Origin: Candidatus Saccharimonadota bacterium
Lineage (GTDB): Archaea > Nanohalarchaeota > Nanosalinia > Nanosalinales > Nanosalinaceae
Reading direction: 5' to 3'
DNA: 32,000 nucleotides
Assembly: GCF_047555085.1 (NCBI RefSeq)
Contig: NZ_CP180230.1
Coordinates: 570,001-602,000 of the forward strand
Notes under the pieces: generated by a model
Told to the model about the DNA's origin: nothing
Databases searched by the model: none
The model's input: only the letters and a program-made list of their open reading frames with translations
Part shown: in pieces, positions 5,330 through 24,378 of the stretch
Numbering within the stretch: position 1 is the stretch's first letter
Layout of the letters: each line of letters opens with the position of its first letter
Position numbers and translations under genes: made by a program

Positions 5330-6124
5330 TTACCAGGGAGCAAAGCCTGGATCGACCATGCGTTCCTCTCTGTCTATAGAATCGATCTTCTGAACGTCTT
5401 CGTCGTCAAGCTCGAGATCAAGGGCCTCGTAGTTATCTCTAATGTGTTCCTCACTACTGGCTTTAGGAATAGCTACTACTCCATCTTTCTGCATCAGCCA
5501 GGCAAGACTTACCTGCGCCTCTGAGACATCATGCTTTTCTGCGACTTCCTGAATCTCTGGAACGTCAAATACCTCTCCACGTGCCAGAGGACTGTACGCT
5601 ACAAGAGTTACATCGTGTTCACGGCACTTTTCCAGAAGTTCCTCCTGCTGAAGCAACGGATGCATCTCGACCTGATTCGCGATGATGTGCTTCGGAGCTA
5701 TCTCCATCGCTTTATCCAGCTGTTCCGGAGTGAAGTTGCTGACACCGATGTTCCTGATTTCTCCACTGTGAACAAGCTCCTTGAAGGCCTTCAGAGTTTC
5801 CTGCGGACTGTAGTCTCCGGCAGGCCAGTGAACATACATCAGGTCAACGTAGTCGACTCCAAGCTTCTCTACAGATTCTTTTGTAGAGGCCTTCACGTTT
5901 TCCGGAGCCAGTTGATCGATCCAGACCTTCGAGGCCAGGAAGTAATCCTCTCTATCGACATCCGCGTCTTCGAGGCCTTTTCCGACGTCTTCCTCATTTT
6001 CGTATGCCTGAGCAGTATCTATATGCCTGTAGCCCATGTTGAGAGCTGTTTCCACGGATTTTGCGCATTCTTCAGGATCTGTGTTCTGCCAGGTTCCAAG
6101 GCCTAGCTTCGGTATATCAGTCAT
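5330..6124 (-). CDS. Aldo/keto reductase (2,5-diketo-D-gluconate reductase-like)
   Basis: LGLGTWQ, GYRHIDTAQAYENEEDVG, LMYVHWP and IGVSNF are classical AKR signatures. Confidence 0.9.
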   Translation of the reverse strand: MTDIPKLGLGTWQNTDPEECAKSVETALNMGYRHIDTAQAYENEEDVGKGLEDADVDREDYFLASKVWIDQLAPENVKASTKESVEKLGVDYVDLMYVHWPAGDYSPQETLKAFKELVHSGEIRNIGVSNFTPEQLDKAMEIAPKHIIANQVEMHPLLQQEELLEKCREHDVTLVAYSPLARGEVFDVPEIQEVAEKHDVSEAQVSLAWLMQKDGVVAIPKASSEEHIRDNYEALDLELDDEDVQKIDSIDREERMVDPGFAPW

Positions 6125-8250: not shown

Positions 8251-9510
8251 TCAGGCCTCCGTGGATTTTTCAAACCAGGCCTTCAGAGTTACATCAACAC
8301 CGAGAGTCTTCTCCATGAATATCTCCAGTGTACGCAGCTCCTCCAGTCTGTCCTCCTCCAGATCCTCTAACTTTTCCTCCAGGCCATGAAGACGCTCCTG
8401 CTTGTCCTCAAGATCTCTTTCAAGGCCTTCAATCTTCTTCACAAGACTTTCACGCTTATCAGTTATATCCATTTCATCAAGCTCATCTTTCTTCGCCTCT
8501 ATCTCATCTTCGTACTCTCTTATCTCATTTTTATCGGCATCAAAGCCTTCAAAGTTCTCAACAGCATCTTCAAATTTTTCCAGCTGTCTATCATCAAGCA
8601 AGTCCTCTTCACGGATCTTTTCACAGGCCTTCTCCAGTTCAGAGGAAGGATTCTCTACAGAATCAAATTCTTTATCACGTATCCTCTTCAGAACACCAAG
8701 ATCGCCGTCGAAATCCGTACCAGAGTTCTCTACACTGTAGATAAGCTTTTTCAGGCCTCTATCAAGATTTGAAGCTCGACGGGAGATAGACTTCCGAACA
8801 TCGTCCCTCCTGGACTCGAGATAATTTATGCTGTCCTCAAGATCCTCCTTCCTATCCCAGGCCTCTGTACTCTCCAGCTCCTCCAGCTCATCTTTCCTAT
8901 CATCTAAATTCTCTTCTACATCTTCTATTTCATTTTTAACTGACTCAATTTTCTCTTCAGTTTTATCTATATCTTCAGAGAATCTTTCTATTCTTGATAG
9001 GGCCTTTTCAATCTGTTCAAGCTGTTTTATCGCCTGATACTCTTCTTTGATAAAATCTGACATCTCATCCCTGTGCTCAACGACAGCACTGAATTTTTCT
9101 GAGAGCACTCCAGAACTCTGCTCCACTCTCTTCATCACAGCACCTTCTTTGCGTGATACATCGTTTAACTCTTCCACAAAATCATCGAGATCTTCAAAAT
9201 GTTCTTCTAACTCTTCAGAGGCCTCAAAGTTGTCTATGAGCTTCTTGCGTGATTCATAGAAGTTTTGTGCTACATCTTCAACGGCCTGTATATCTGCCGC
9301 GTCCTCATAATCCGTTAGTTCATCCAGGCTTTCATCAAGCTCCTGAAGAAGATCATCTGTCCTTGAAACTAGCTGATCTGATCTTTCACGAGCTTTCTCG
9401 ATTTCCTGTTGCCTTCTTCTCCTGAAAGTTTTCTCTGCTTCGTCTAAATCTACTTCTAGTTCTTCTTCCTCCTTGGAAAAAATATTTTCCAGCTTGTCGA
9501 TCAGGCCCAT
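8251..9510 (-). CDS. Acidic coiled-coil protein (about 419 aa), function unknown
   Basis: Long Glu/Asp/Lys-rich heptad-like sequence. I prefer the ATG at 9510 (MGLIDKLENIF...) because the track's GTG at 9555 lies inside the TATA-like tttaaat element. Confidence 0.6.
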   Translation of the reverse strand: MGLIDKLENIFSKEEEELEVDLDEAEKTFRRRRQQEIEKARERSDQLVSRTDDLLQELDESLDELTDYEDAADIQAVEDVAQNFYESRKKLIDNFEASEELEEHFEDLDDFVEELNDVSRKEGAVMKRVEQSSGVLSEKFSAVVEHRDEMSDFIKEEYQAIKQLEQIEKALSRIERFSEDIDKTEEKIESVKNEIEDVEENLDDRKDELEELESTEAWDRKEDLEDSINYLESRRDDVRKSISRRASNLDRGLKKLIYSVENSGTDFDGDLGVLKRIRDKEFDSVENPSSELEKACEKIREEDLLDDRQLEKFEDAVENFEGFDADKNEIREYEDEIEAKKDELDEMDITDKRESLVKKIEGLERDLEDKQERLHGLEEKLEDLEEDRLEELRTLEIFMEKTLGVDVTLKAWFEKSTEA

Positions 9511-9561
9511 GACATCTCTGGATAATTTTTGCACTCCCAGATTTAAACAGGTCACCTAATA

Positions 9562-11499
9562 TCAGATATCCTTCCTCTTCATCAACTGGGCGTTGAAAGC
9601 CACTATTACAGTGGATAACGACATCACAAGCGCACCAACTGCTGGCTGAAGTGTCAATCCAATCGGTGCTGCAACTCCAGCGGCCAGAGGGATTGCAAAC
9701 GCGTTGTAGCCTGTGGCCCAGAAAAGGTTCTGCACCATCTTGGAGTAGGTCAATTCGCTGATGTTCATGACCTTCACGATACCCATCGGGCTGTCGTTAA
9801 CCAGTACAATGTCGGCTGATTCAACAGCTACATCTGTACCACTGCCGATTGCAACACCTATATCTGCTCTTGTCAATGCAACTGCATCGTTCACTCCGTC
9901 TCCAACCATCATGACTTCTCCGTCTTCCTGGAGTTCTCTGACTTTATCGTCTTTCTCATCTGGTAGCACTTCTGCAAACCAGTTGTCGATTCCCAGTTCT
10001 TCAGCTACTGCAGAGGCCACGTCCTCCGAGTCTCCGGTAATCATGGCAACTTCAACTCCTTTCTCATGCAGCTCTTCAATGGCCTCATAGCTTTCCTCTC
10101 TGATATGATCCCCCAGGGATACAGCGCCGATTACCTCGTCCTTGATCAGGTATACAACGGTACGGCCTTTATCACCTTCTTCCTCCGCAAATTCCTCAAA
10201 GCTGTTCTCTACGCCAAGCTCTTCCAGCATTTTAGGGCCTCCTGCATGGAATGTCTCTCCATCGATATCTGCCTTGACTCCTTTACCTTTGATTGCTTCA
10301 AAGCTGTCTGTCTCGTGAAGTTCAAGGCCTCTGTCCTCTGCTTCCTCTACAATGGCCTGTCCTATAACGTGTTCCGAGTTTTTCTCGATTGAGGCCAGTT
10401 TTGCGAAGTCTTCGTCGCTGATATCGGTTCTCTCAACTTTCTGCTCTCCCTCTGTTAGCGTGCCTGTCTTGTCCAGTGCTACCGTATCTATCTGTCGGGC
10501 CTGTTCAAGAGCTGTTCTCTGCCTGACAACCACTCCGTTGCTGGCGCTCATAGCTGTACTTATCGATACTACAAGAGGTATTGCAAGGCCAAGCGCGTGA
10601 GGACACGCGATAACAAGAACTGTGACTACTCTTTCCAGCGTGGTTATTCCGAGGCCTGTTGCAAGGGTCCATGCGAGGCCTGTAACAAATGCTGATCCCA
10701 GTGCGATGTAGAAAAGCCATCCTGCGGCCTTATCTGCGAGCAGCTGTGTCTCCGTCTTGTCCTCCTGGGCCTCGTCGACCAGCTTCATTATACCTGAGAG
10801 AGCTGTATCTTCGCCTGTCGCTGTAATCTTTACTCTGAGAGCTCCTTCCTTGTTGACAGTTCCTCCAATCACTTCATCTCCTTCTGACTTGCTTACAGGC
10901 TCTGATTCTCCTGTAATCATTGATTCATCGATAGATGAATCGCCTTCAACTACTTCTCCGTCCGCAGGAATCGAGCTGCCAGGCCTTACCAGAACTATGT
11001 CGCCTTCTTCAAGTTCGGAGACCTTTACTTCTTCTGTCTCGTCTCCGTCGACTACTTTCTCCGCTGTATTCGGTACAAGTTTCTTGAGTTCGTCCAGCGC
11101 GGAAGAGGCCTGACGTACAGATCTCATCTCTATCCAGTGGCCGAGTAGCATGATGTCGATCAGTGTTACCAGTTCCCAGAAAAAGCTGGAGGTAGTATTG
11201 AGGAAAAGCGAGGCCATGCTGTATGTGAAGGCCACTATTATTGCCAGCGAGATTAAGGCCATCATACCCGGCTTTCTGTCCTCTAACTCATCCTTGCCCA
11301 TTTTCAGGAATGGAAGGCCTCCGTATGCGAAAATTATTACGGAGAAAACCGGTACTGTCAGGTTGCTGCCATAAAATTCGATCGGTGTATAGTTGAAGAG
11401 GCCTGAGATAAAAGTCGAAAAGTAAAGTACAGGTATAGAAAGTAGCGTGGATACGAAGAATTTTTTCCTGAACATCATCTCGTGGTGTTTGTGGCTCAT
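9562..11499 (-). CDS. copB: Copper-transporting P1B-type ATPase, CopB-like (CPH motif, His-rich N-terminus, no HMA domain)
   Basis: MSHKHHEMM N-terminus, TGESEPV, the transmembrane IACPHALGLAIPLV (CPH), DKTGTLTEG, ITGD and GDGVNDAVAL. Confidence 0.88.
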   Translation of the reverse strand: MSHKHHEMMFRKKFFVSTLLSIPVLYFSTFISGLFNYTPIEFYGSNLTVPVFSVIIFAYGGLPFLKMGKDELEDRKPGMMALISLAIIVAFTYSMASLFLNTTSSFFWELVTLIDIMLLGHWIEMRSVRQASSALDELKKLVPNTAEKVVDGDETEEVKVSELEEGDIVLVRPGSSIPADGEVVEGDSSIDESMITGESEPVSKSEGDEVIGGTVNKEGALRVKITATGEDTALSGIMKLVDEAQEDKTETQLLADKAAGWLFYIALGSAFVTGLAWTLATGLGITTLERVVTVLVIACPHALGLAIPLVVSISTAMSASNGVVVRQRTALEQARQIDTVALDKTGTLTEGEQKVERTDISDEDFAKLASIEKNSEHVIGQAIVEEAEDRGLELHETDSFEAIKGKGVKADIDGETFHAGGPKMLEELGVENSFEEFAEEEGDKGRTVVYLIKDEVIGAVSLGDHIREESYEAIEELHEKGVEVAMITGDSEDVASAVAEELGIDNWFAEVLPDEKDDKVRELQEDGEVMMVGDGVNDAVALTRADIGVAIGSGTDVAVESADIVLVNDSPMGIVKVMNISELTYSKMVQNLFWATGYNAFAIPLAAGVAAPIGLTLQPAVGALVMSLSTVIVAFNAQLMKRKDI

Positions 11500-11561
11500 G
11501 TTCTAGGCCTCCATATTAACTGTCTTTTCTTTATCATTGTTTATTTTGTGGCGTAGCTGAG

Positions 11562-12134
11562 TCATAGTTGATCTTCCTCCTGCCATTCTCGCATCCTCCT
11601 GATCTCTTTTTGCTGTGCTTCAATCATCTGAAGCTGCATCTTTCTAAGCTCTGTGTTCTCTCCTGATCTGTAAAAGTTTTGAGACATCGCAATACCGCCT
11701 TCATGGTGCTCTATCATTAGTGCTGCGAACAACTCGTTGAACTCTGTCCCGTTGATATCCCTCAGCTTCTCCATCTCTTCTCGGGAAGCCATACCAGCCA
11801 TTCTGTGTCCTCTGACAGGCCTTTCATAGCCTAGCTGATTCAGCCATTCCGTCATCTGTCTGTTTTCCTGTGTCTGAGCCTGTGAAATATTTTTCGCAAG
11901 TTCCAGTATATTCTCGTTATCAGTCCTGTTCTCAGCAAGTTCTGCCATATCAATCGCCTGGTCGTGATGGATGATCATCATATTCATGAACATCACATCG
12001 TTCCGATTGAATCCGCTTTGCCCTCTTTCTTCACTTCCGGCCTGAATAAGCACTCCTGCCAAAAACAGCAAGCCTAGTAGTGCGATAGAGGCCTTCCTAA
12101 AATCAAGGTTTTCGATTGAAACCATACGTATCAT
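11562..12134 (-). CDS. DUF305-family protein (four-helix, His-rich; typically copper-associated) with an N-terminal anchor or signal
   Basis: Duplicated DUF305-type motifs MMIIHHDQAIDMAELA and ALMIEHHEGGIAMSQ. It lies directly upstream of copB on the same strand. Confidence 0.8.
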   Translation of the reverse strand: MIRMVSIENLDFRKASIALLGLLFLAGVLIQAGSEERGQSGFNRNDVMFMNMMIIHHDQAIDMAELAENRTDNENILELAKNISQAQTQENRQMTEWLNQLGYERPVRGHRMAGMASREEMEKLRDINGTEFNELFAALMIEHHEGGIAMSQNFYRSGENTELRKMQLQMIEAQQKEIRRMREWQEEDQL

Positions 12135-12203
12135 TATATGATAGGTCTTTTTTAGTCTTTTTCAGGCAAACCAATTTATGAGTTCACAGAAACTTCTAGA
12201 ACT

Positions 12204-12602
12204 GTGGCACGAGAAATCGACCTGTCAAATGTTAACAGAGTATACACACTTCTGCTTCTGAAGTCAGGGCCTAGACACGGCTATGGCATTATCAGTGATA
12301 TTGAAGATATTACCGGGGAGAGGCCTACGACTTCTCACATCTATCCTTTCATTGAGAAGTTGCTGGATAAGGAGATAATTGAAGTAGTGGAGAAGGGTGA
12401 TAGGGGGAAGAAAATCTACGGTCTGACATCTCACGGTGAGGAAATTATTGAACAGCAGCTGGATTCATTCAGCGAGATAATGTACGCTGCGATAGAGGAC
12501 CGGATCGAGGAATGCAGCCACTGCAGCTGCAAGATTTACGAAGGAGGATACGAAGAAGATGGAAAAGTTTACTGCTGTGAGCACTGCGCTAGATCCAAGT
12601 AG
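12204..12602 (+). CDS. PadR-family winged-helix regulator with a C-terminal Cys-rich (TRASH/zinc-ribbon-like) metal-binding tail
   Basis: PadR core: LLLLKSGPRHGYGIISDIE...IYPFIEKLLDKEIIEV...KKIYGLTSHGEE. Tail: ECSHCSCKIYEGGYEEDGKVYCCEHCARSK. GTG start, divergent from DUF305-copB. Confidence 0.75.
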   Translation: MAREIDLSNVNRVYTLLLLKSGPRHGYGIISDIEDITGERPTTSHIYPFIEKLLDKEIIEVVEKGDRGKKIYGLTSHGEEIIEQQLDSFSEIMYAAIEDRIEECSHCSCKIYEGGYEEDGKVYCCEHCARSK

Positions 12603-15838: not shown

Positions 15839-15950
15839 ACACTAAACAGGTATTCAGGAAATTGAAAAACAACGAGGTTACTCCAAAGAAACGGGACTTG
15901 TAGTAGACCTGTAATGCCAAAGTCCAAGCTATTTGTGAGGAAGAATTATG

Positions 15951-16022
15951 AGCCCCATCCGAGATTTGAACCCGGGATCTCGTCCTTACCAAGGACGCGC
16001 TCTACCGCTGAGCCAATGGGGC
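15951..16022 (-). tRNA. tRNA-Thr (anticodon GGU), no encoded CCA
   Basis: Hand-folded cloverleaf: acceptor GCCCCAT/ATGGGGC, D arm GCTC-AGCGGTA-GAGC, anticodon arm CGTCC-TTGGTAA-GGACG, T arm CCGGG-TTCAAAT-CTCGG. Confidence 0.9.
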
Positions 16023-16103: not shown

Positions 16104-16265
16104 TTATCCTGCGAACTGGGAGTTCTTCTTTCTGAGGTCGCTGTATCCGCATTTTCTGCAGCTTGTCTTCTCTGGATTGTCTGTCTTGTTCTTTGCGTTG
16201 CAGCGTCTGCAGATGTATACGTTTTCGAATACTCTTTGTTCAGCTTCCTCAAATCTCTGTGCCAT
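16104..16265 (-). CDS. rpl40e: 50S ribosomal protein L40e (53 aa); missed by the ORF track
   Basis: My translation: MAQRFEEAEQRVFENVYICRRCNAKNKTDNPEKTSCRKCGYSDLRKKNSQFAG. It has the CxxC...CxxC zinc ribbon and an N-terminus typical of archaeal L40e. An AGAGGTG Shine-Dalgarno lies about 10 nt upstream. Confidence 0.85.
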   Translation of the reverse strand: MAQRFEEAEQRVFENVYICRRCNAKNKTDNPEKTSCRKCGYSDLRKKNSQFAG

Positions 16266-16320
16266 AAGTTTTGTACACCTCTATAGGTCTAAACTCGAGG
16301 CCTAGTTTTAAATAAGAAAT

Positions 16321-17673
16321 TTATCTGTCGTAGTTAGAATTTGGCAGATAAATATCGAATGATGGTGGTTTCAGGCCTGGCAGTATCTCGATGTCATGGC
16401 CGCTGGTATCTTTCCTGTCTCTCGAGTTGAATCCTTCAGGTACTGCACCCGGCTTTCTTGCTCCGAACACGTTGCCGTCTTTATCTACTACTTCATCTCC
16501 TCCGAGCTTGTCATATCTTACAAAGATTCTGGTAGGGCCTCCATCCTTGCTTACGTTGAACTCTCCTATTGTTTTAACGATTTTTGTAGGTGAAAGGAGG
16601 CCTTCGGCTTCAAGAGCGTTACATAGCTCTCCAACGATTTTTTCTGTAGTTTTCCTATTTTGATTTACATTATCGCTTGGCGAGTCATCTTGTTTTGGAT
16701 ATATGGTGGCAAGTTTTACAGCTGTCTCCTTTCCCTTGTTCTTCAGGCTTTCAGCGTTTCTTCCAAACTTGTTTTCACTTTCCATACCCTTAAGAACAGG
16801 CATAACTGCTTCTGCCACACGCAGAACTTCGTCCTCGTTTTCTGGATTGACAGCTACGTGAATCTTCCATCCCTGTGAAGCTGTTTTCCCGCTGTGCACC
16901 ATCCAGTTGAACCTTTTACCGCCGCTTTTGTGGACCCAGGCCCAGCGCCCCTTCCAGATGTCTGCACTGTTTTTACTCCAGTCAGGCTCAGTAGTAGGAT
17001 CTTTAGCCACTAACTGCCATGGCTCTGAAAGACTTGAACCTGTATCATCTGAACCATCTGAAGAATCATCAGAGGCCTCCGGAGCGTATTTTTTACTCAG
17101 AATGTTGCTGACTCTCTCCGCACGTTTATGGAGTTCTGTTTCAATTTCATCTTTTTCCAGACCGTGCTCATCCAAAATATCAGTTAAAATGGATTCAAGC
17201 TGCTGAACTTTCTTCCCTTTCCTGTCAAGCTCTTCTATCTTCCTCCCGAGCTCGTTAATCTGTTTCTCCTCCTTTCCTGCGATTTTTCCGAGGCCTGAGT
17301 CCTGAAGGCGTGAGGCGATACTTTCCAGCTCTCTGTCCTCTTCGGAGGCCTTGGATACATCCCGCTCAAGTTTATTTCTCAGATCTGATAGTCTTCTGGC
17401 ATTCCGGATGGAGGCCTCCAGCTGTTTCCCTATCTCCTGCTTTCTGGCGTTCTGTATCTCGGTGAGATAATCTTTCAGGACATCGGCAGAGCTATCAGTT
17501 AAAGAGATTTTAAGACCGTCTATACCGAAATCCACTGAGTCTGGATCTACTTCAAGGCCTTGCTTACTGATTATTACTCTTGCAAGTGAGAATCTTTCAG
17601 AGGCCTCTAAATCACGTTTAGTCGAAGTTATATCGCTTGCCAGGGCCTCCACTGCATCGCTGTAAGAAGTCAT
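16321..17673 (-). CDS. Cluster gene E: N-terminal coiled-coil adaptor plus a C-terminal domain with phospho-Ser/Thr-lyase-like (OspF/SpvC/HopA1/LanL-lyase) motifs
   Basis: 450 aa. The ATG immediately follows the stop of the JAMM gene (GGAGGA-TAA-ATG). Residues 1-190 align without gaps to the JAMM protein N-terminus (about 31% identity over residues 101-170). The C-terminal part has QGWK270-I-H272-V, NK302F and KLATIYP. The coding call is confident; the functional call is about 0.4. Confidence 0.8.
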   Translation of the reverse strand: MTSYSDAVEALASDITSTKRDLEASERFSLARVIISKQGLEVDPDSVDFGIDGLKISLTDSSADVLKDYLTEIQNARKQEIGKQLEASIRNARRLSDLRNKLERDVSKASEEDRELESIASRLQDSGLGKIAGKEEKQINELGRKIEELDRKGKKVQQLESILTDILDEHGLEKDEIETELHKRAERVSNILSKKYAPEASDDSSDGSDDTGSSLSEPWQLVAKDPTTEPDWSKNSADIWKGRWAWVHKSGGKRFNWMVHSGKTASQGWKIHVAVNPENEDEVLRVAEAVMPVLKGMESENKFGRNAESLKNKGKETAVKLATIYPKQDDSPSDNVNQNRKTTEKIVGELCNALEAEGLLSPTKIVKTIGEFNVSKDGGPTRIFVRYDKLGGDEVVDKDGNVFGARKPGAVPEGFNSRDRKDTSGHDIEILPGLKPPSFDIYLPNSNYDR

Positions 17674-18813
17674 TTATCCTCCACCACTGAACTCTGTTGG
17701 TTCTGGAAGTTTTTCGAAGCTGTATCCTGATGCTATGTTGCTCCATTCCTCGTCAAGTTCTTCACGCCATTCGCTGAACTCTCCGGAACTTTTTCTGTCG
17801 AAAGTGTTCAGTTCCGGATCTCTGGAGTTGCCTTTAAGCAGTACTTTTTTCGGAGTTACAAGCATTCCTATGTATCCTTCTCCCTGTTCCTTGAAATTTT
17901 CTATATCGCCTTCCGACCAGCTTTCAGCGTATTTTGGACCGTAACGATGTATTGTGCCAACCGAGTGCGTATGGAATTCTACAAGTCTGTACTTGGCATA
18001 ATTTTCTATCAGTTGGTTGGCTGCTCTCAGTCGGGCCTCATCCGGGGAAACTGACTGCTCATCCCCTACACCGGTCTTCAGAGTTTTCAGTACTGTCCAG
18101 TCTTTCCCTTCTTTCCTGCATATAAGGAGGCCTGTGATCTCCTCATTGTATGTATTAGCTGCGTGACGCAGATTCTGGAGGAACTCTTTATCGATGAATA
18201 TCTTTGTGTTTCCGCTTTTTCTTTCAGAGGCCTCTCCTGCATTTTCAAGTACAACGCCTATGACGTTCTTTCGATGCTTCAGTGATTCCACTATTCTGTG
18301 GCTTTCAGCGTAGCTTTCAAGATTTTCGTATTCGCTGAGCAATGTCTCAAGTTTTTCCTGCCTTTCCATAAGGCCTGAAAGCCTGTTCCCCATCTCCTGC
18401 ATCTGCTCTCCCTCATAATCGACTTCTGCAAGAAGATGTGCATCTTTTAATCGCCTTGCGATATTTTCAAGTTCTTTTCCTTCTCCTACAGCTTTCTCAA
18501 GCTCTGATACAAGCTGATCAGAAAGTGAGAAAAGCATGCTGTACTCGTTTTTCTTGTTTGGTGATGTATGCGTTGAATCCAGTTTTTTCGCCCATTCCAG
18601 ATTCTCGTCTATGGCCTGACTGTACTGCTGCAGAAGAGTTCTCCCGTCGTCGCTCAGATGTATCGTGCAGGCCTCGCAGATATTTTCCACTTCATCGATA
18701 TCGGAGTTATTTGAAAGCAGAAGGCCTAGAGCTTCTTCTCTGTCTCTTCCGTCGGGGACTTCCAGGCGTTCACTCAGTACGGCTTTGAACTGGCTGTAGT
18801 AGTTCTCACTCAT
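17674..18813 (-). CDS. Cluster gene D: coiled-coil adaptor plus a JAMM/MPN+ (JAB) metalloprotease domain
   Basis: NEEITGLL (Glu225/226) ... EFH282TH284S...S301EGD304 gives E...HxH...SxxD. The ATG at 18813 (or GTG at 18816) overlaps the stop of gene C (ATGAGTGA) and is preceded by a GGGGGAG Shine-Dalgarno-like run. Confidence 0.8.
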   Translation of the reverse strand: MSENYYSQFKAVLSERLEVPDGRDREEALGLLLSNNSDIDEVENICEACTIHLSDDGRTLLQQYSQAIDENLEWAKKLDSTHTSPNKKNEYSMLFSLSDQLVSELEKAVGEGKELENIARRLKDAHLLAEVDYEGEQMQEMGNRLSGLMERQEKLETLLSEYENLESYAESHRIVESLKHRKNVIGVVLENAGEASERKSGNTKIFIDKEFLQNLRHAANTYNEEITGLLICRKEGKDWTVLKTLKTGVGDEQSVSPDEARLRAANQLIENYAKYRLVEFHTHSVGTIHRYGPKYAESWSEGDIENFKEQGEGYIGMLVTPKKVLLKGNSRDPELNTFDRKSSGEFSEWREELDEEWSNIASGYSFEKLPEPTEFSGGG

Positions 18814-19630
18814 CACTCTCCCCCAGTAGATTGATTATACGTCTTATCCTGTCTATGTCTTCTTCCAGTTCATCTATTTCCTCGTCCATCAGCTCATTGA
18901 TCTCGTCTTCAGCATCTGATAGAATTCTTATAACTTGTTCAAGTTCTCTGGCAGTTGTCTCGGCTTCTTCATCGGCCTCTTCTTCCTCGCCTTCATCTAT
19001 TTCATCTTCTTCACGGGCCTCTTCTTCCTCGATCTGCTCTTCTTCGGTTTCTGCCCTGTCCAGTGCTTCTTTAGTGGCCTCTATACCTTCCACCATCTGT
19101 CCGACACCGCTTGAAGTGGCCTTAACTGATGCTCCGGTAATGTAAGCTGATCCTGCTATAGTTCCTCCGACTCCTCCGATAAGTATGAACAGTGTTCCTG
19201 CAAGGATCATGAATGTGAATGCGAGAAGAATCATTGACTGCCAGCCTCTTATCAGGCCTGTGAATCCTGCTGATCCAACTACGGTAAGCGTTATCAGTAG
19301 TGTAAGTACCGCAAGTACGTTTCTGCTATCATCGTCTGTAAGGCCTACAGCATCCTGGAACGGCGTGTCCATGTTGCTGTCTTCGAGGTTCTTATCGAGG
19401 TACTGGAGCGCTATCTTGAAGATTACGTATGCGGATACCCACATAACGGAGAATGTTGCGAGTATGCCAAGCACGTGGTATGGTTCCGAGACTCTTATTC
19501 CGAATACCTGTGATAGAAGTTCTGGAAGAGATGCAGATCCATACCCGTAGTATCCTCCGTTAGTTATCTGTGCAGATGTGGATGGTATGAAGGCTGTAAA
19601 CAGTAAAACCAGTTTTCTCCAGCGCCCCAT
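18806..19630 (-). CDS. Cluster gene C: signal peptide, 3 TM helices, then an acidic coiled-coil tail (short paralogue of gene A)
   Basis: The N-terminal 160 aa are collinear with gene A: signal peptide ending TSAQITNGG, helices LGILATFSVMWVSAYVIF, VLAVLTLLITLTVVG and the identical GLIRGWQSMILLAFTFMI. The tail then carries ARELEQVIRIL. Confidence 0.8.
   Translation of the reverse strand: MGRWRKLVLLFTAFIPSTSAQITNGGYYGYGSASLPELLSQVFGIRVSEPYHVLGILATFSVMWVSAYVIFKIALQYLDKNLEDSNMDTPFQDAVGLTDDDSRNVLAVLTLLITLTVVGSAGFTGLIRGWQSMILLAFTFMILAGTLFILIGGVGGTIAGSAYITGASVKATSSGVGQMVEGIEATKEALDRAETEEEQIEEEEAREEDEIDEGEEEEADEEAETTARELEQVIRILSDAEDEINELMDEEIDELEEDIDRIRRIINLLGESDE
19206..19258. repeat. 53-nt block nearly identical (2 mismatches) to 22904-22956; encodes GLIRGWQSMILLAFTFMI in gene C
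   Basis: Compared directly: atcatgaatgtgaatgcgagaagaatcattgactgccagcctcttatcaggcc versus atcatgaacgtgaatgcgagaaggatcattgactgccagcctcttatcaggcc. Confidence 0.85.
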
Positions 19631-19653
19631 GCCGTAAAATTATCGGTTCGTGG

Positions 19654-19661
19654 TTATAAGA
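19654..19661 (-). promoter_or_regulatory. TATA-like box (minus strand tcttataa) at -24..-31 of the gene C ATG
   Basis: Read directly. A T-run (ttcttcttttttg on the minus strand) lies further upstream, just downstream of the gene B stop. This suggests C-D-E is its own transcription unit. Confidence 0.4.
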
Positions 19662-19724
19662 GTTTACAAGAAAACGGCGTTTTCAATCAAAAAAGAAGAA
19701 TAAGAAGGGAGAAGTCAGGATGGC

Positions 19725-21110
19725 TCAGGGCATCCTGGCCATGCTTTCTATCTCTTCCCTGAACTCCTCGACAGCATCGTATTCTTCGCCAGTAGCATCT
19801 TCTACGTGAGACTGGACTCTCTCCGTCAGCGAATGGATGCCATAATCGTCCTCTGCAGTGATATCATCAAGGCCAAGGTGATCGTACAGACCTACAACTT
19901 CATCAAGACGTGTACCAACACGTACATCTTCCTCATCAAGCCTGTCTGTTATTGCTTCAGCTGCCTGTGCGTAATCCGTTACTGCATCCTCCAGGTAGTC
20001 GATTCTTGTCAAAGCACGCTTTGCAACTGCATTGGCTGCTCTGCTGATATCCTGTACTACGCCCTGCTGGTCCTGTGAAAGCTCCGGTGAGCCTGGAAGT
20101 GTTTCTGGAACAGATTTAGCTTCATAAACGTCGCGCATGTTCCCAAGGCTGGATAGTGTGATGAAAAGATCCTCTATGCTCTCTGCCTGATCCTCAACAT
20201 ACTCTATCACATCGGTAGAGAACTCAACATGAACCTCTTCAAGTTCATCCATCCTGTCCGTTCTCTCTGAGACAAGATCCTGTTTCTCATCCTTGAGTGT
20301 AGAACGCTGTTCCTGAGCATCAGATCTAACTTCCTGTTTCTCCTCTTCAAGCTCTTCACGGCGCTCCTCATACTCGGATTCAGCCTCTTCCACAGTAGTT
20401 CTGAAGCTTCCCGAGATATCATCCCATTCCTGCTGCCACATATCATTCGTCTCATCGTAGGACGACTCATCAAGATCAGAAGTGGACATGCCAGAAACCT
20501 GAGACTTCAGATCTCCAACTTCTTCCTCCTTCTCCCGTTCAGCCTGCTCAATACGCTCATCTCTTCTTTCCTCAGCCTGCTCAATCTCCTGCTCAATCTC
20601 ATCAACACGCTCCCGCTCCCTGTCGGAAACATTGCTTATCAGGCCTGTAAACTGCTGGACCTGTGATGAGAGAGTATCAACAGCAGCAGAGTTGGACTGG
20701 AGATATTCCATCAAGCTCTGATCCTCATCAGCAAACTCGATGCGCTCTCCATCCTCCTCAAGATACTTTAAATCAACCAGCTCCCACTCATCATCTACTT
20801 CTGCAAGACCTGTCTCACGGGCATCCGCAAGGAACCTGTTAACAGGCTGATTCTCATCACCAGCTCTGCTTTCAAGCCTGCTCTTCAGATCACGGAACTG
20901 TATTTCTCTCTGTCTCTGTTTCCCAAGCGCATTGCCGTACTCCGACTCAGCACTCTGGGCCTCTCTAGCAAGTTCATCTTCATCAAGAACATTTGCATTA
21001 GCATGAGTTCCAGCACGTCTGTTCGCAGGATTTCCATTAACCTCAGCCTCTCTCCCTTCAAGTTCAAAACCAAATTCTTCCTCTACAGTCTCCTCTCCAT
21101 TATCATCCAT
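19725..21110 (-). CDS. Cluster gene B: highly acidic soluble coiled-coil protein (461 aa), unknown function
   Basis: Long ORF with no TM helix and extended Glu/Asp/Arg-rich helical repeats. A GGTGA Shine-Dalgarno lies 7 nt upstream of the ATG. Confidence 0.7.
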   Translation of the reverse strand: MDDNGEETVEEEFGFELEGREAEVNGNPANRRAGTHANANVLDEDELAREAQSAESEYGNALGKQRQREIQFRDLKSRLESRAGDENQPVNRFLADARETGLAEVDDEWELVDLKYLEEDGERIEFADEDQSLMEYLQSNSAAVDTLSSQVQQFTGLISNVSDRERERVDEIEQEIEQAEERRDERIEQAEREKEEEVGDLKSQVSGMSTSDLDESSYDETNDMWQQEWDDISGSFRTTVEEAESEYEERREELEEEKQEVRSDAQEQRSTLKDEKQDLVSERTDRMDELEEVHVEFSTDVIEYVEDQAESIEDLFITLSSLGNMRDVYEAKSVPETLPGSPELSQDQQGVVQDISRAANAVAKRALTRIDYLEDAVTDYAQAAEAITDRLDEEDVRVGTRLDEVVGLYDHLGLDDITAEDDYGIHSLTERVQSHVEDATGEEYDAVEEFREEIESMARMP

Positions 21111-21231
21111 ATTGTAATCACCAGGGTATAGTAAAGCACGTGAGAATTATATACTTAATCCTGGCCTTAGATTTGAACAGAATCATTTAAGACCACTGAG
21201 AAAAATTATGATCGCTGCTAGGACGTCTTCA

Positions 21232-23313
21232 TTAACTCTCAAACGTGTAAAAAACTTCTTCAATTCTCTCTCTTTCAATATTCCTGAAAACGTCTCCTGT
21301 TGCCGGGCAGAAGCACACGCCAATACTCTCCGTGTCAACGAACACACAAGGAAAAACACCGCCGCCTACACGATAAAAACCGAGGCTGACAAACGCATCA
21401 TCAATGAAATCCCTGACAGGCCTCCATGCACCAACTTTGGAGCTGTTAAGCTCATCTACAAGCCTGTGATCATATATAGGCCTGAAGTTATGGATAAGGA
21501 ATCCAAGATAAACCGCATTCACAAGATCAGAATCAAAACGCAGAGAATCAAACGCTTCGGACAGCAAAATATTCTTCCTGTCCCTATCAGGAATTTTTGA
21601 AGAATTTATATCGCTATTTATGGACTCGAAGACATTAACAAGCTCTTCACCAACCTTGCTTTTCCTGCTTATGTCTCTGGACTTGATAAAATTCCTTATG
21701 TCTCCTTCAAATCTTTTGATAAGGCCTCTGGATTTCTTATCAAATTCAAAAGCTTTTTTGCCAGTATGGCTTCCTGCCGACATACCGATATCTACTTTCA
21801 AAGTTGTATTGCTTTTTCCGGAAGGAAAAATAGTTAGTCCAGGCCTTATCGAAGCTTCAGCTTCTGCTTCGCTGTCAAAACTTACAAATTTGGCTGTACT
21901 GATGCCAGTACTGCTTGAGTCGATGATCTGTTCTGTCAGTATTTTTCTTACATCTATTGCGTTTCTTAGGGCGTCAAGGCCTCCTATATGGGATTCAAGC
22001 TCCTTGATGTGCTCCTCTAAATCTTTCAGTCTTTCGTCCATATCTCTTATGCGCTCAAGTTCTTTCTTCAGCTCCTTCAGTTGATTTATCTCGTACTCGT
22101 ATTCTTCTGCAATTTTTCTCCTGTTTCTGGATGACTCCAGATGATCTATTAGCTCTTGAAGATCTTTTTCCTCATCCACAGCATGGCCTATCTCGGCCTC
22201 AAGGCCTTCGATTAAATCCTGTAACTCGCTGTAAATCCTGTTGTTGGCCTCCAAGTCAGATACCTGATTTTTCAATCTTTCAAGTTCATTCAGGTACTGC
22301 TCCAGCAAGTCCAGTTCCTCTTCCGTGACCGGCAAAGCTCCTGCAGAATTTATTATATCTCTGAAACGTGCTTCAGCTTCACCTGAGGCCTCGTTAAGTG
22401 AAAGAAGCTCTTCCAGTTCATCCCTACTTATTTCAAGTCTCTCTACTACATTCCTGAGATTTTCGAATCCTTCATGTCCCTCCTGTACTCCAAGAGCTCT
22501 CAGTAACTCTTTCAAGGCCTGCAAATCATTTTTCAGATTTTCAAGCTCTGTGCTGATACTTCCCTCTATCCTGTTCTCTATATCCTCGATCAACTGTATG
22601 ACTCTTTCAAGCCTGTTAGCTATATCCTCTAACTCTCTTTCTACTTCACTCGCTCCACGACTGCCTGTATCTGTTGAACTGTCAGTATCGCCTTCCTCTT
22701 TTCTTCGTGCATCATCCTCTTCCCTGTCGATGCTTTCCTCAAGTTCCTCGACTTCATCCTCTTCCCCTCTTATCTTCTCAACCTCTTCTGAGGCCTCTTT
22801 CACTCCTCTGGCAACTGATTTAGCGGATTTACCGAGTAGATATCCGCCGCCTCCCAGTATAAAGCCTGTGCCTCCTATAAGTACGAACATCAGGCCTGCT
22901 ATAATCATGAACGTGAATGCGAGAAGGATCATTGACTGCCAGCCTCTTATCAGGCCGTAAAACGCTCCTGTGCCGATGACGCTGAGAGTTACAAGTAGAG
23001 TGAGTACCGCCAGAATATTCCTGTCCTCGCTCCTGGCAATTCCAAATGCGTCAGCAAATCCGTTGCGTCCGTCAAGGCCTTCATCCAGCTTCCCTATAGC
23101 TATCTTGAAGATTAAATACGCGGACAGCCACATCAGGCCGAAAGTAGCAAGCAGTCCTATCAGTTCTGTAGGATTTCCGATGTTGATCCCCAGTAGTTCT
23201 GATAGAAGAGCAGGTATAGACGCTGTGCTTCCGAAGCCTCCTCCGGTTATCTGCGCAGAGGCCTCAGACAAAAGAAGCGAAAACACAAGTACTAGCTGGG
23301 AAAGCCTCTTCAT
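21232..23313 (-). CDS. Cluster gene A: signal peptide, 3 TM helices, about 280 aa of coiled coil, and an unknown C-terminal globular domain of about 230 aa
   Basis: 693 aa. The signal peptide ends EASAQITGGG and the TM helices are paralogous to gene C. RELEDIANRL sits at aa 226-235. The C-terminal domain (STGISTAKFVSF...FYRVGGGVFPCVFVDTESIGVCFCPATGD...) matches nothing I recognise. Confidence 0.8.
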   Translation of the reverse strand: MKRLSQLVLVFSLLLSEASAQITGGGFGSTASIPALLSELLGINIGNPTELIGLLATFGLMWLSAYLIFKIAIGKLDEGLDGRNGFADAFGIARSEDRNILAVLTLLVTLSVIGTGAFYGLIRGWQSMILLAFTFMIIAGLMFVLIGGTGFILGGGGYLLGKSAKSVARGVKEASEEVEKIRGEEDEVEELEESIDREEDDARRKEEGDTDSSTDTGSRGASEVERELEDIANRLERVIQLIEDIENRIEGSISTELENLKNDLQALKELLRALGVQEGHEGFENLRNVVERLEISRDELEELLSLNEASGEAEARFRDIINSAGALPVTEEELDLLEQYLNELERLKNQVSDLEANNRIYSELQDLIEGLEAEIGHAVDEEKDLQELIDHLESSRNRRKIAEEYEYEINQLKELKKELERIRDMDERLKDLEEHIKELESHIGGLDALRNAIDVRKILTEQIIDSSSTGISTAKFVSFDSEAEAEASIRPGLTIFPSGKSNTTLKVDIGMSAGSHTGKKAFEFDKKSRGLIKRFEGDIRNFIKSRDISRKSKVGEELVNVFESINSDINSSKIPDRDRKNILLSEAFDSLRFDSDLVNAVYLGFLIHNFRPIYDHRLVDELNSSKVGAWRPVRDFIDDAFVSLGFYRVGGGVFPCVFVDTESIGVCFCPATGDVFRNIERERIEEVFYTFES
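22904..22956. repeat. Partner of the 53-nt conserved block at 19206-19258 (gene A copy)
   Basis: See 19206-19258. The flanking paralogous sequence is much more diverged at the nucleotide level. Confidence 0.85.
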
Positions 23314-23336
23314 AAGGCCTAATTTGTCTTTTACAA

Positions 23337-23344
23337 AATATAAA
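23337..23344 (-). promoter_or_regulatory. TATA-like box (minus strand tttatatt) at -24..-31 of the gene A ATG
   Basis: Read directly, in the 242-bp divergent region shared with the AbrB-like gene. Confidence 0.4.
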
Positions 23345-23555
23345 GATGGAAGAACACCTCAAAAATTCATCTCCCACGTTCAGCCCACGCACAGTTTAAA
23401 AATATGGCAGCTACAATTTCTGTCTGTGGTTCACAAATGAAAGGTGAATACGATCATCTCTCCAGAAGGAGAGAAAGCGGAAGAAAAGTTACAGAATAGT
23501 TCTCAAAATCTTCTAGATAGTTCAAGCGATTCCTGCAGCTCTTCACCAATCAAAG

Positions 23556-23804
23556 GTGAAGGCGTTCACGGAAAGCTTCTCAACAACTCTTGACTCAAAA
23601 GGCCGTGTAACTTTACCTGCCAGTGTCAGAAGGAAGCTAGGCCTCGAGAAAGGAGACAAAGTGAAGATCTCCGCAAAAAATCCCCGCATCCGGAGTAGAG
23701 AGGCCTCATGTATTGAGGAGGCTCTGAGCTTTCTGCAGGAATTTGATTCCGTGGAAACTTTCTCCTTCAACGGGGAAAGAGTTGAGGTGGTTCTAAGTGG
23801 ATAG
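23556..23804 (+). CDS. AbrB/SpoVT/MazE-family DNA-binding protein (antitoxin-like)
   Basis: DSKGRVTLPASVRRKLGLEKGDKVKI is a typical swapped-hairpin AbrB motif. GTG start, with no in-frame ATG available upstream. Confidence 0.75.
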   Translation: MKAFTESFSTTLDSKGRVTLPASVRRKLGLEKGDKVKISAKNPRIRSREASCIEEALSFLQEFDSVETFSFNGERVEVVLSG

Positions 23805-24378
23805 CCTCGAGTTCACGGATCTAAGTTACGAACCCGGTGAGTACTCTCTAAGCGACGAAAAGATGGAATCAGCTGTGATAGGTATGTACCAGAGAGTGTT
23901 CAATAACTCTCCTTACGGGGAGAACTTTGACTACGAACTGGCTGAAGATATTGTCCAGGGAATCCGGGGAAAGGATACGGAAGGCCTTCTTGCTGTTCAG
24001 GACGGTATGCCTGTCGGATTTGCATGGGGAGAAGTTCTGGAGCCGGGGGATAGGGAAATTTTTCCGGATGAAATCCCTGGAGAATTCTTCGATGGAAGTA
24101 GTTACTACTTCGCTGAGCTCGGTGTACTACCGGATTACCGTGATCAGGGCCTCGGTAAAGAGCTAAAGAGGCGGGAGCTGGAGAAAGTTAAAAACCGTGA
24201 AGATATCGATAAAGGCCTGATGCGGACATCTGTGGAGGAGAACGATAAGAAGCTGGGTCTTGACAGCGATCTGGGATTCGAGGCCTTGGAGCCTGATGGA
24301 GAACCTGTAACAGAGGAGGTTGAATCCGTGGGAGTTGAAGGAAGTGATCTCCGTGGCTACTTCTGGAGGCCTGTATGA
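23797..24378 (+). CDS. GNAT-family N-acetyltransferase; start uncertain (GTG at 23797 overlapping the AbrB stop, or ATG at 23863)
   Basis: AELGVLPDYRDQGLGKELKRREL matches the acetyl-CoA-binding motif A (R/Q-x-x-G-x-G/A). Confidence 0.7.
   Translation: MDSLEFTDLSYEPGEYSLSDEKMESAVIGMYQRVFNNSPYGENFDYELAEDIVQGIRGKDTEGLLAVQDGMPVGFAWGEVLEPGDREIFPDEIPGEFFDGSSYYFAELGVLPDYRDQGLGKELKRRELEKVKNREDIDKGLMRTSVEENDKKLGLDSDLGFEALEPDGEPVTEEVESVGVEGSDLRGYFWRPV

Follow-up and report, generated by a model that had tools for sequence, protein, structure and literature searches.

Gene E and its reading frame

The DNA analysed here, referred to throughout as the window, is a 32,000-nucleotide chromosomal stretch (contig NZ_CP180230.1, 1.05 Mb) of a nanohaloarchaeon, a member of the DPANN archaea; its GC content is about 46% and its proteins are strongly acidic. 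The subject of interest is gene E (16321–17673, minus strand), an open reading frame (ORF) of 450 codons and the last of five co-directional genes, encoding proteins of 693, 461, 274, 380 and 450 amino acids, which we term the cassette. The gene E product comprises a helical N-terminal adaptor, an acidic linker rich in Ser, Gly and Asp, and a C-terminal domain that we assign below as a putative phosphoserine/phosphothreonine (pSer/pThr) lyase; hydropathy analysis revealed no transmembrane-like or hydrophobic segment, and the protein is taken to be soluble. The last three genes of the cassette overlap or abut in an operon-like manner, the ATG of gene E lying immediately against the stop codon of the upstream gene, which encodes a JAB-like protein. 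The strand opposite gene E contains only short ORFs of 65–99 residues.

An initial annotation, made from the sequence by a model, had drawn attention to lyase-like motifs in the C-terminal part of gene E. The protein string quoted there is matched exactly in the translation of the minus-strand ORF at 16321–17673, and nucleotides 16855–16872 on this strand indeed encode GWKIHV, with K270 at 16864–16866 and H272 at 16858–16860; the codons of K302 and of the TIYP motif lie at 16768–16770 and 16696–16707. The span originally assigned to the domain, 16321–16971, takes in most of it (residues 235–450) but begins too late, as the model and alignments described below place the domain at residues 216–450 (16324–17028), its start falling at about residue 216 (17028).

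Family and fold of the C-terminal domain

Residues 245–332 of gene E match the Pfam family RamC_N (PF25816), which describes the lyase domain at the N-terminus of class III lanthipeptide synthetases, with an E-value of 9.5e-10 and a score of 38.7 bits against a curated cut-off of 27. The NCBIfam models for LanKC and LanL hit only this lyase segment, at E ~1e-6 and 27–28 bits, compared with cut-offs of 575 and 650. Seven orthologues of gene E, 40–63% identical to it, were found in metagenome assemblies, and K270, H272, K302, R305, K320 and T323–P326 are invariant among them; the Lys/His/Lys trio singled out at the start is thus conserved in every orthologue. When the C-terminal domain was used as the query of an exhaustive HMMER search, 27 representatives of clusters were obtained at E <= 1e-3, including two artefacts from repeat proteins. 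A word-indexed protein search with a lyase alignment (A2) yielded four orthologues that were already known and nothing else. The alignment used for the family, A3, contains 28 diverse lyase-domain homologues extending down to about 20% identity, all of which match RamC_N, the best with an E-value of 4e-57, whereas the OspF/SpvC family of Pfam is matched neither by gene E nor by any of the 28.

A full-length AlphaFold2 model built from seven sequences was too poor to be of use, with a predicted local distance difference test score (pLDDT) of 45, and a model of residues 216–450 calculated from alignment A3 was used instead; for this domain the pLDDT is 85.4 and the predicted template modelling score 0.87. 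Comparison of the domain model with the PDB using Foldseek gave 32 top matches that are all lyases sharing this fold, 24 of them at E <= 1e-3. The class III synthetases SalKC, CuvL, ThurKC and PneKC were matched at E-values of 3e-7 to 5e-5 and a probability of 1.00. VirA, SpvC and OspF (PDB entries 3bo6, 2p1w, 3i0u and 2q8y) followed at 1.5e-4 to 2e-3, again with a probability of 1.00, and with target-normalised template modelling scores (TM-scores) of 0.43–0.48; LxmY and HopA1 ranked lower (E 0.01–0.1). The A3 family profile, run against the sequences of the PDB, matched LanKC (E 1.7e-21) and ThurKC (E 1.4e-18) across the lyase domain, and VirA at 0.018 only.

Judged by its sequence, fold and residues, the C-terminal domain of gene E belongs to the RamC_N family. 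The protein lies outside the OspF/SpvC sequence family, yet fold and catalytic arrangement are held in common. The above-threshold RamC_N score, the ThurKC profile match and the Foldseek probabilities of 1.00 to LanKC as well as to SpvC, OspF and VirA sustain the early suggestion that gene E is phospho-Ser/Thr lyase-like. The resemblance to HopA1 noted at the same time holds as a remote similarity of fold (Foldseek E 0.03) but does not extend to sequence, none of the 28 homologues matching the HopA1 family of Pfam. Similarly, the domain was described as unusual for an archaeon: it is rare, but gene E is not isolated, a small family being present on metagenome contigs that seem to derive from DPANN archaea or halophiles.

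Active-site residues

Mutagenesis of ThurKC has identified K65, H67, K94, K108, K117, D152, R163 and R191 as residues of the dehydration reaction (PMC10604976). In SpvC, K65 is represented by K104, H67 by H106, K94 by K136, K117 by R148, D152 by D201, R163 by R213 and R191 by R220, while K108 is without a counterpart, its loop being missing from SpvC and OspF (PMC10604976); by this account the SpvC residues K104, H106 and K136, given in the initial annotation, were correct. To place these positions in gene E, both proteins were aligned to the family hidden Markov model (HMM) with hmmalign, and conservation was counted over the 28 homologues.

In this mapping, the counterpart of the phosphate-binding lysine K65 is K270, which is kept in all 28 homologues, and that of the general acid H67 is H272, kept in 27. 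K94, equivalent to the catalytic base K136 of SpvC, falls on K302 (16768–16770, minus strand), again kept in 28 of 28. K117 aligns with K320 (27 of 28), at the position of SpvC R148; this residue opens a KLATIYP block (16696–16716, minus strand), in which TIYP occupies 16696–16707 and its Thr and its Tyr are each found in 27 of the 28 sequences. Further along the same strand, in the segment 16516–16563, D152 (SpvC D201) corresponds to E371 (16561–16563), a position that is acidic throughout (23 Glu, 5 Asp), and R163 (SpvC R213) to R386 (16516–16518; 27 of 28).

Two stand-alone lyase homologues from metagenomes, P0019 and P0020, have the sequence GWK[IL]R, with Arg where the catalytic His is expected. 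These proteins may be inactive or mechanistically different.

A shared N-terminal domain carrying exchangeable enzymes

Residues 1–197 of gene E (17083–17673, minus strand) form a domain that recurs in other proteins of the cassette and its relatives. It is predicted to be all-helical, with long helices, on the basis of the low-confidence full-length model, and it has ELExIAxRLxD as its core motif. An HMM of this N-domain (alignment A4 family) matches JAB-like proteins (E 1e-17 to 1e-24), HExxH proteins resembling SprT (5e-21), the centre of the 693-residue protein (2.7e-10) and a group of fusions to PPP-type metallophosphatases (P0008, P0009 and the PPP ORFs of loci L008 and L029). A word-indexed search with A4 gave nothing at E <= 1 although members are present in the database, which is likely to reflect a composition or bias filter, and a metagenome scan with a narrower N-domain alignment (A5) identified four loci.

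The place of gene E is taken by a PPP fusion in L003, L008 and L029, while the lyase fusion stands there in the window and in L001, L005, L007 and L031. The PPP fusions lie at 1481–3076 of L008 (minus strand), at 10001–12295 of L003 (plus strand; this is P0009) and at 6001–8307 of L029 (plus strand), P0008 being the fourth. The best solved relatives of their phosphatase domains are the cold-active protein phosphatases of Shewanella (1v73, E 1e-8), followed by a metallophosphoesterase and ApaH. A comparable replacement affects the JAB-like gene, which is absent in L001 and whose position is occupied in L005 and L031 by the SprT-like protein with the shared N-domain (L005 6401–7615, plus strand, with the motif HELMH; L031 4763–5986, plus strand); Pfam matches of the HExxH proteins are sub-threshold. 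Between close relatives, the exchange of the C-terminal enzyme occurs at the acidic low-complexity linker. Lyases of this type and PPP phosphatases both remove phosphate from Ser and Thr, and their interchangeability on one adaptor argues for a phosphoprotein as the substrate. The shared N-domain and the lyase/phosphatase swap, together with the membrane-anchored partners described below, constitute the most informative context of gene E, none of which had been noticed in the initial annotation.

In three of the four PPP fusions, the canonical first metal motif D-x-H-G is replaced by D-V-E, P0008 alone retaining DIHG, and some of the PPP copies may be catalytically altered.

Partners of gene E in the cassette

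The gene immediately upstream of gene E (17674–18816, minus strand) encodes a JAB/JAMM-like protein of 380 residues that consists of an N-domain as in gene E, the two proteins being related at 1e-7 by BLASTP, and a C-terminal part with an invariant E...HTHS...WSxxD signature. Its similarity to known families is slight: Pfam Prok-JAB is matched at E 0.014, below the cut-off, and Rpn11-like PDB entries at E ~1. The JAMM neighbour assumed in the initial annotation is thus sub-threshold by profile, but five orthologues all keep its E...HxH...SxxD residues, which in the numbering of alignment A6 are E30/E31, H87, H89, S106 and D109.

The start of the JAB-like gene is overlapped by 11 nucleotides by the gene for a 274-residue membrane protein (18806–19630, minus strand), whose N-terminus resembles a signal peptide and which further contains three hydrophobic segments and, as its tail, a very acidic coiled coil. 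Next upstream is the gene for a 461-residue acidic coiled-coil protein (19725–21110, minus strand) that contains 135 Asp and Glu residues and matches no family; it is conserved in L001, L005, L029 and L031 at 40–70% identity. The first gene of the cassette (21232–23313, minus strand) encodes the 693-residue protein, in which a membrane domain and a coiled coil are followed by a copy of the N-domain at residues ~342–487 and by a C-terminal domain of about 200 residues. Its N-terminus is paralogous to the 274-residue protein, both having a signal-peptide-like start, three hydrophobic segments and a conserved SAQITGGG/NGG stretch. We take this shared membrane domain to resemble pilin precursors of the VirB2/TrbC type, a likeness to which profiles lend no support. 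Neither the membrane domain nor the C-terminal domain of the 693-residue protein (residues ~490–693; 21232–21840, minus strand), searched as its last 230 residues, gave a match in Pfam or the PDB; the latter domain is conserved and could be a fifth type of 'payload'. The 693- and 461-residue genes are both absent in L003, L007 and L008.

A link between lyase and membrane is suggested by a distant homologue, P0011, in which a membrane domain, a coiled coil, the adaptor core motif and the lyase are found in one chain. The membrane domain of P0011 is homologous to the 274-residue protein (E 9e-9) and its lyase to that of gene E (E 2e-27); the protein is not acidic and its contig has a GC content of 35%. 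The gene next to P0011 encodes another paralogue of the membrane protein. P0010 and P0012 have an N-terminal hydrophobic segment followed by a long, low-complexity, charged helical region and the lyase. The P0011 gene fusion and the operon structure underlie the proposal that gene E docks on the coiled-coil proteins anchored in the membrane.

A variable slot in a conserved gene order

The histidyl-tRNA synthetase (HisRS) encoded in the window is 66–83% identical to HisRS from genomes and metagenome-assembled genomes (MAGs) of Candidatus Nanohaloarchaea, and 20 nanohaloarchaeal HisRS loci were fetched from a genome collection for comparison. Most of them have the backbone eL40 ... AbrB – GNAT – HisRS – DUF4186 – Obg-like GTPase, the AbrB, GNAT or eL40-like gene being missing from some. 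The interval between eL40 and AbrB measures 0.8–4 kb and holds unrelated genes in the loci compared. In the window, this slot corresponds to 16266–23555. The cassette genes are all absent from 19 of the 20 loci, the cassette filling the slot in the window and a few relatives; in other lineages (L009–L027) UppP-like, GNAT and carbonic-anhydrase-like genes are found there. Among the loci fetched from the collection, L008 is the closest (HisRS 83% identical to that of the window). Between L008 and the window, the cassette proteins are 43–69% identical, compared with 83–87% for the flanking HisRS, Obg-like GTPase and eL40-like proteins.

At the upstream border, the AbrB/MazE-like gene (23556–23804) and the GNAT gene (23797–24378), both on the plus strand and hence divergent from the cassette, belong to the conserved backbone. 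The former overlaps the start of the latter in an arrangement reminiscent of toxin–antitoxin genes, and the pair recurs in many of the relatives examined but not in every one. At the downstream border lies a 53-residue Zn-ribbon ORF (16104–16265, minus strand), for which Pfam gives only sub-threshold Zn-ribbon matches and which we take to be eL40-like, and after it a tRNA-Thr gene (15950–16022, minus strand). The Zn-ribbon ORF is 75–91% identical in most, but not all, of the nanohaloarchaeal loci fetched.

Several origins for the cassette were considered and set aside. An element integrated at the tRNA-Thr is not indicated, integrases and repeats not having been sought in depth: the cassette is syntenic in relatives and sits in a variable slot bounded by the conserved eL40-like and AbrB–GNAT genes. 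An anti-phage defence system was rejected, PADLOC giving only weak coiled-coil noise, as was a viral origin, with coiled-coil noise in PHROGs and no fold match in BFVD; two matches in IMG/VR proved to be ordinary full-length bacterial LanKC synthetases. A search of PLSDB with tblastn gave no match that would point to a plasmid.

One of the loci, L017 (JBLGBK010000010.1), carries the title of a Colwellia polaris MAG, although its gene order is nanohaloarchaeal and its HisRS shares 74% identity with the one in the window; the contig has probably been mis-binned.

Absence of a lanthipeptide synthetase context

Profile searches with Pfam and NCBIfam revealed no kinase or cyclase domain in gene E, nothing follows the lyase domain in the protein, and LanC was matched nowhere in the window. 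No Ser/Thr or APH-type kinase, LanC-like protein or candidate precursor was met in the window, in the syntenic loci or in the surroundings of the distant homologues, and the cassette and the contexts of those homologues contain no transporter, no leader protease and no small ORF rich in Cys, Ser and Thr. The 53-residue Zn-ribbon ORF downstream was rejected as a precursor peptide, being a conserved housekeeping gene. Since kinase, cyclase and precursor were all looked for and none was found, gene E is not a lanthipeptide synthetase, in agreement with the initial annotation, where such a role was thought unlikely.

Proposed function of gene E

From the homology, fold, residue conservation, domain architecture, cassette structure and variability described above, we infer a catalytic activity, a membrane docking and a substrate class for gene E. 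The reading that best accounts for the sequence data, and that we consider probable, is that of an enzyme, tethered to the membrane, by which proteins lose phosphate through beta-elimination. By homology, K270, K320, R386 and probably R406/K407 would hold the phosphate, K302 would act as the base that takes the alpha-proton, and H272, helped by E371, would protonate the leaving phosphate. Phosphoserine and phosphothreonine would thereby be converted to dehydroalanine and dehydrobutyrine, and the dephosphorylation would hence be irreversible. The N-terminal helical domain of about 195 residues would serve as an adaptor, probably docking through coiled-coil contacts on the membrane-anchored proteins of the same operon, so that the lyase would work on the cytoplasmic side of the membrane. 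The most likely substrate is a phosphoprotein and not the precursor of a peptide made on the ribosome and modified after translation (RiPP), because in sister genomes the slot holds a PPP-type protein phosphatase on the same adaptor.

A number of points weigh against this scheme. The Pfam match of gene E itself spans only positions 12–101 of the 191 in the RamC_N profile, the second half of the lyase domain having been aligned by way of the family profile and the model only, and the TM-scores of the domain model against solved lyases are moderate, at 0.41–0.48. The acidic active-site counterpart, E371, is Glu instead of Asp, and ThurKC K108 and R191 fall in unaligned insert regions of the hmmalign mapping; by spacing only, K311 (kept in 9 of 28 homologues) and R406/K407 (14–15 of 28) are the candidates for these positions. 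The six catalytic counterparts were placed by alignment and are presumed to converge in one pocket, and lyase activity is assigned across this archaeal subfamily by homology. Docking to the membrane proteins is suggested by gene fusion and operon structure, and the membrane topology, and with it the cytoplasmic side, is predicted from hydropathy. Finally, profile searches identified no protein kinase within the cassette that would make the substrate.

The same chemistry might instead be directed at the proteins of a haloarchaeal host, the enzyme being passed on through cell–cell contact and silencing its targets in the manner of OspF and SpvC; the cassette, with its lyase or PPP phosphatase, its JAMM-like or HExxH protease and its membrane platform, would then represent the exchangeable armament of an ectosymbiont. 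The source organism, a nanohaloarchaeon, is in keeping with this, and cultivated DPANN archaea are host-dependent ectosymbionts (bioRxiv 10.1101/2023.02.24.529834). By fold, the nearest characterised free-standing relatives of gene E are secreted virulence effectors. A constant N-domain bearing four different C-terminal enzymes that are swapped among close relatives, and a variable slot in a conserved backbone from which the cassette is missing at 19 of the 20 HisRS loci, would likewise suit an effector, as would the faster divergence of the cassette proteins relative to the flanking genes (43–69% against 83–87%, L008 versus window), but faster divergence would be expected of any accessory gene. 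Gene E and the JAB-like protein, moreover, have no signal peptide or hydrophobic segment, the cassette includes no known translocation machinery or immunity-like gene, and export of its proteins from the cell is purely presumed. We therefore regard a host-directed role for gene E as unlikely, and the more elaborate proposal, in which an exchangeable effector set of enzymes that erase or cut protein modifications, the JAMM-like one as an isopeptidase, rides on one coiled-coil adaptor, gathers on a membrane platform where the cells touch and acts on host proteins, as marginally less likely again.

Two other explanations appear considerably less probable than either. The lyase could be one half of a split RiPP dehydratase that, with a kinase encoded elsewhere, dehydrates Ser and Thr of a precursor, as in class V clusters, which comprise a kinase (LanK) and the HopA1-like LanY (PMC10604976). 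The lexapeptide dehydratase LxmKY (PDB 9dk1), the solved complex of a stand-alone lyase and a separate kinase, shows that such a division exists, and the nearest sequence relatives of gene E are the lyase domains of class III lanthipeptide synthetases. What makes the idea improbable is that kinase, cyclase, transporter, leader protease and precursor are all missing from the cassette and from the contexts of the distant homologues, that the small downstream ORF is a conserved Zn-ribbon housekeeping gene, and that a PPP phosphatase standing in for the lyase, as it does in sister genomes, would make no sense in a dehydratase pathway. Alternatively, the fold could have been kept for something other than a protein lyase, either as a non-catalytic phospho-binding module or as an enzyme acting on a non-protein phosphoester of the membrane, such as a lipid head group of the phosphoserine type. 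Several lineages have the domain fused or tethered to membrane proteins, and P0019 and P0020, with Arg for the catalytic His, demonstrate that non-canonical members exist; HopA1, a solved relative of the fold (PDB 4rsx), is not known to have lyase activity. The retention in gene E and nearly all homologues of the full catalytic set, beyond the residues needed to bind phosphate, and the protein-phosphatase type of the enzyme that alternates with it in the slot leave little room for this explanation.

Relation to known systems

Phospho-Ser/Thr lyases have been described as virulence effectors of bacteria and as parts of bacterial lanthipeptide synthetases, the two settings in which they are known. 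The lyase domains of the LanKC proteins ThurKC, CuvL, PneKC and SalKC are the closest to gene E by both sequence and fold, and they have in common with it the blocks QGWKIH, K, GKxxTIYP, D/E and RY. They differ in being accompanied by a kinase, a cyclase and a precursor peptide, all three of which are lacking for gene E, and in the position of the lyase, which is N-terminal in LanKC and C-terminal in the archaeal protein. Relative to LanKC, gene E has, in addition to its fusion to a coiled-coil adaptor, a Trp-rich stretch (PWQLVAKDP...W.W) that extends the lyase domain by about 50 residues at its front and, past TIYP, an insert in which an N-x-N...T motif occurs.

With the type III secreted proteins OspF, SpvC, VirA and HopAI1, gene E shares the fold and the K-x-H motif followed by a Lys 30 residues past the His; like them it would be a free-standing enzyme acting on proteins outside RiPP synthetases. 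In contrast to these effectors, it occurs without a type III secretion system or a MAPK context and has Glu in place of Asp201; hydropathy and NCBIfam searches indicated neither a signal peptide nor a known secretion system for gene E. The class V protein LanY (LxmY) and HopA1, which are also of the stand-alone lyase type, resemble gene E remotely in fold (E 0.012–0.03), but no adjacent LanK-type/APH-like kinase is found in the cassette or in the homologue contexts.

The architecture of the cassette, a constant N-terminal module with exchangeable C-terminal enzymes (lyase, PPP, JAB-like, HExxH), is also that of polymorphic toxins and effectors. Unlike these, the cassette has neither an immunity gene nor a domain recognisable as serving secretion or trafficking: downstream there are only the eL40-like gene and tRNA-Thr, or an EamA transporter, and PADLOC, PHROG and NCBIfam gave no meaningful matches. 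Its enzymes, furthermore, are of kinds that remove modifications or cleave proteins, whereas classic polymorphic toxins are nucleases and deaminases.

The domain call as such is not new, as automatic Pfam annotation already labels gene E proteins RamC_N. New are the attachment of the lyase, as C-terminal domain, to an adaptor specific to the lineage, the exchange of lyase for phosphatase, the membrane-anchored partners and the phylum. A 2014 survey found lyases of the SpvC and LanL types in bacteria only (PMC4159009), and we found no published description of such lyases in archaea or DPANN. If gene E is active, irreversible dephosphorylation and protein-bound dehydroalanine and dehydrobutyrine would be added to the means of protein regulation in archaea, and there would be a testable handle on how a genome-reduced symbiont deals with its own or its host's phosphoproteins. 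The modular design of adaptor plus enzyme and the membrane partners point to a protein assembly not previously described in DPANN archaea. Were the proteins of the host the true targets, gene E would be an archaeal counterpart of OspF and SpvC that irreversibly disables host phospho-signalling, and the cassette the first effector-like module for host manipulation described in archaea.

Other features of the window

Scans for sigma-70 promoters and terminators gave nothing above the shuffled background, such models not being applicable to archaea. Outside the cassette, the region 9562–12602 is a probable metal-resistance cluster with genes for a P-type ATPase, a DUF305 protein and a PadR regulator, the C-terminal tail of the last having a weak, sub-threshold metallothionein-like match (Pfam E 0.0011). 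Adjoining it at 8251–9555 (minus strand) is the gene for a 434-residue coiled-coil protein that matches no family.

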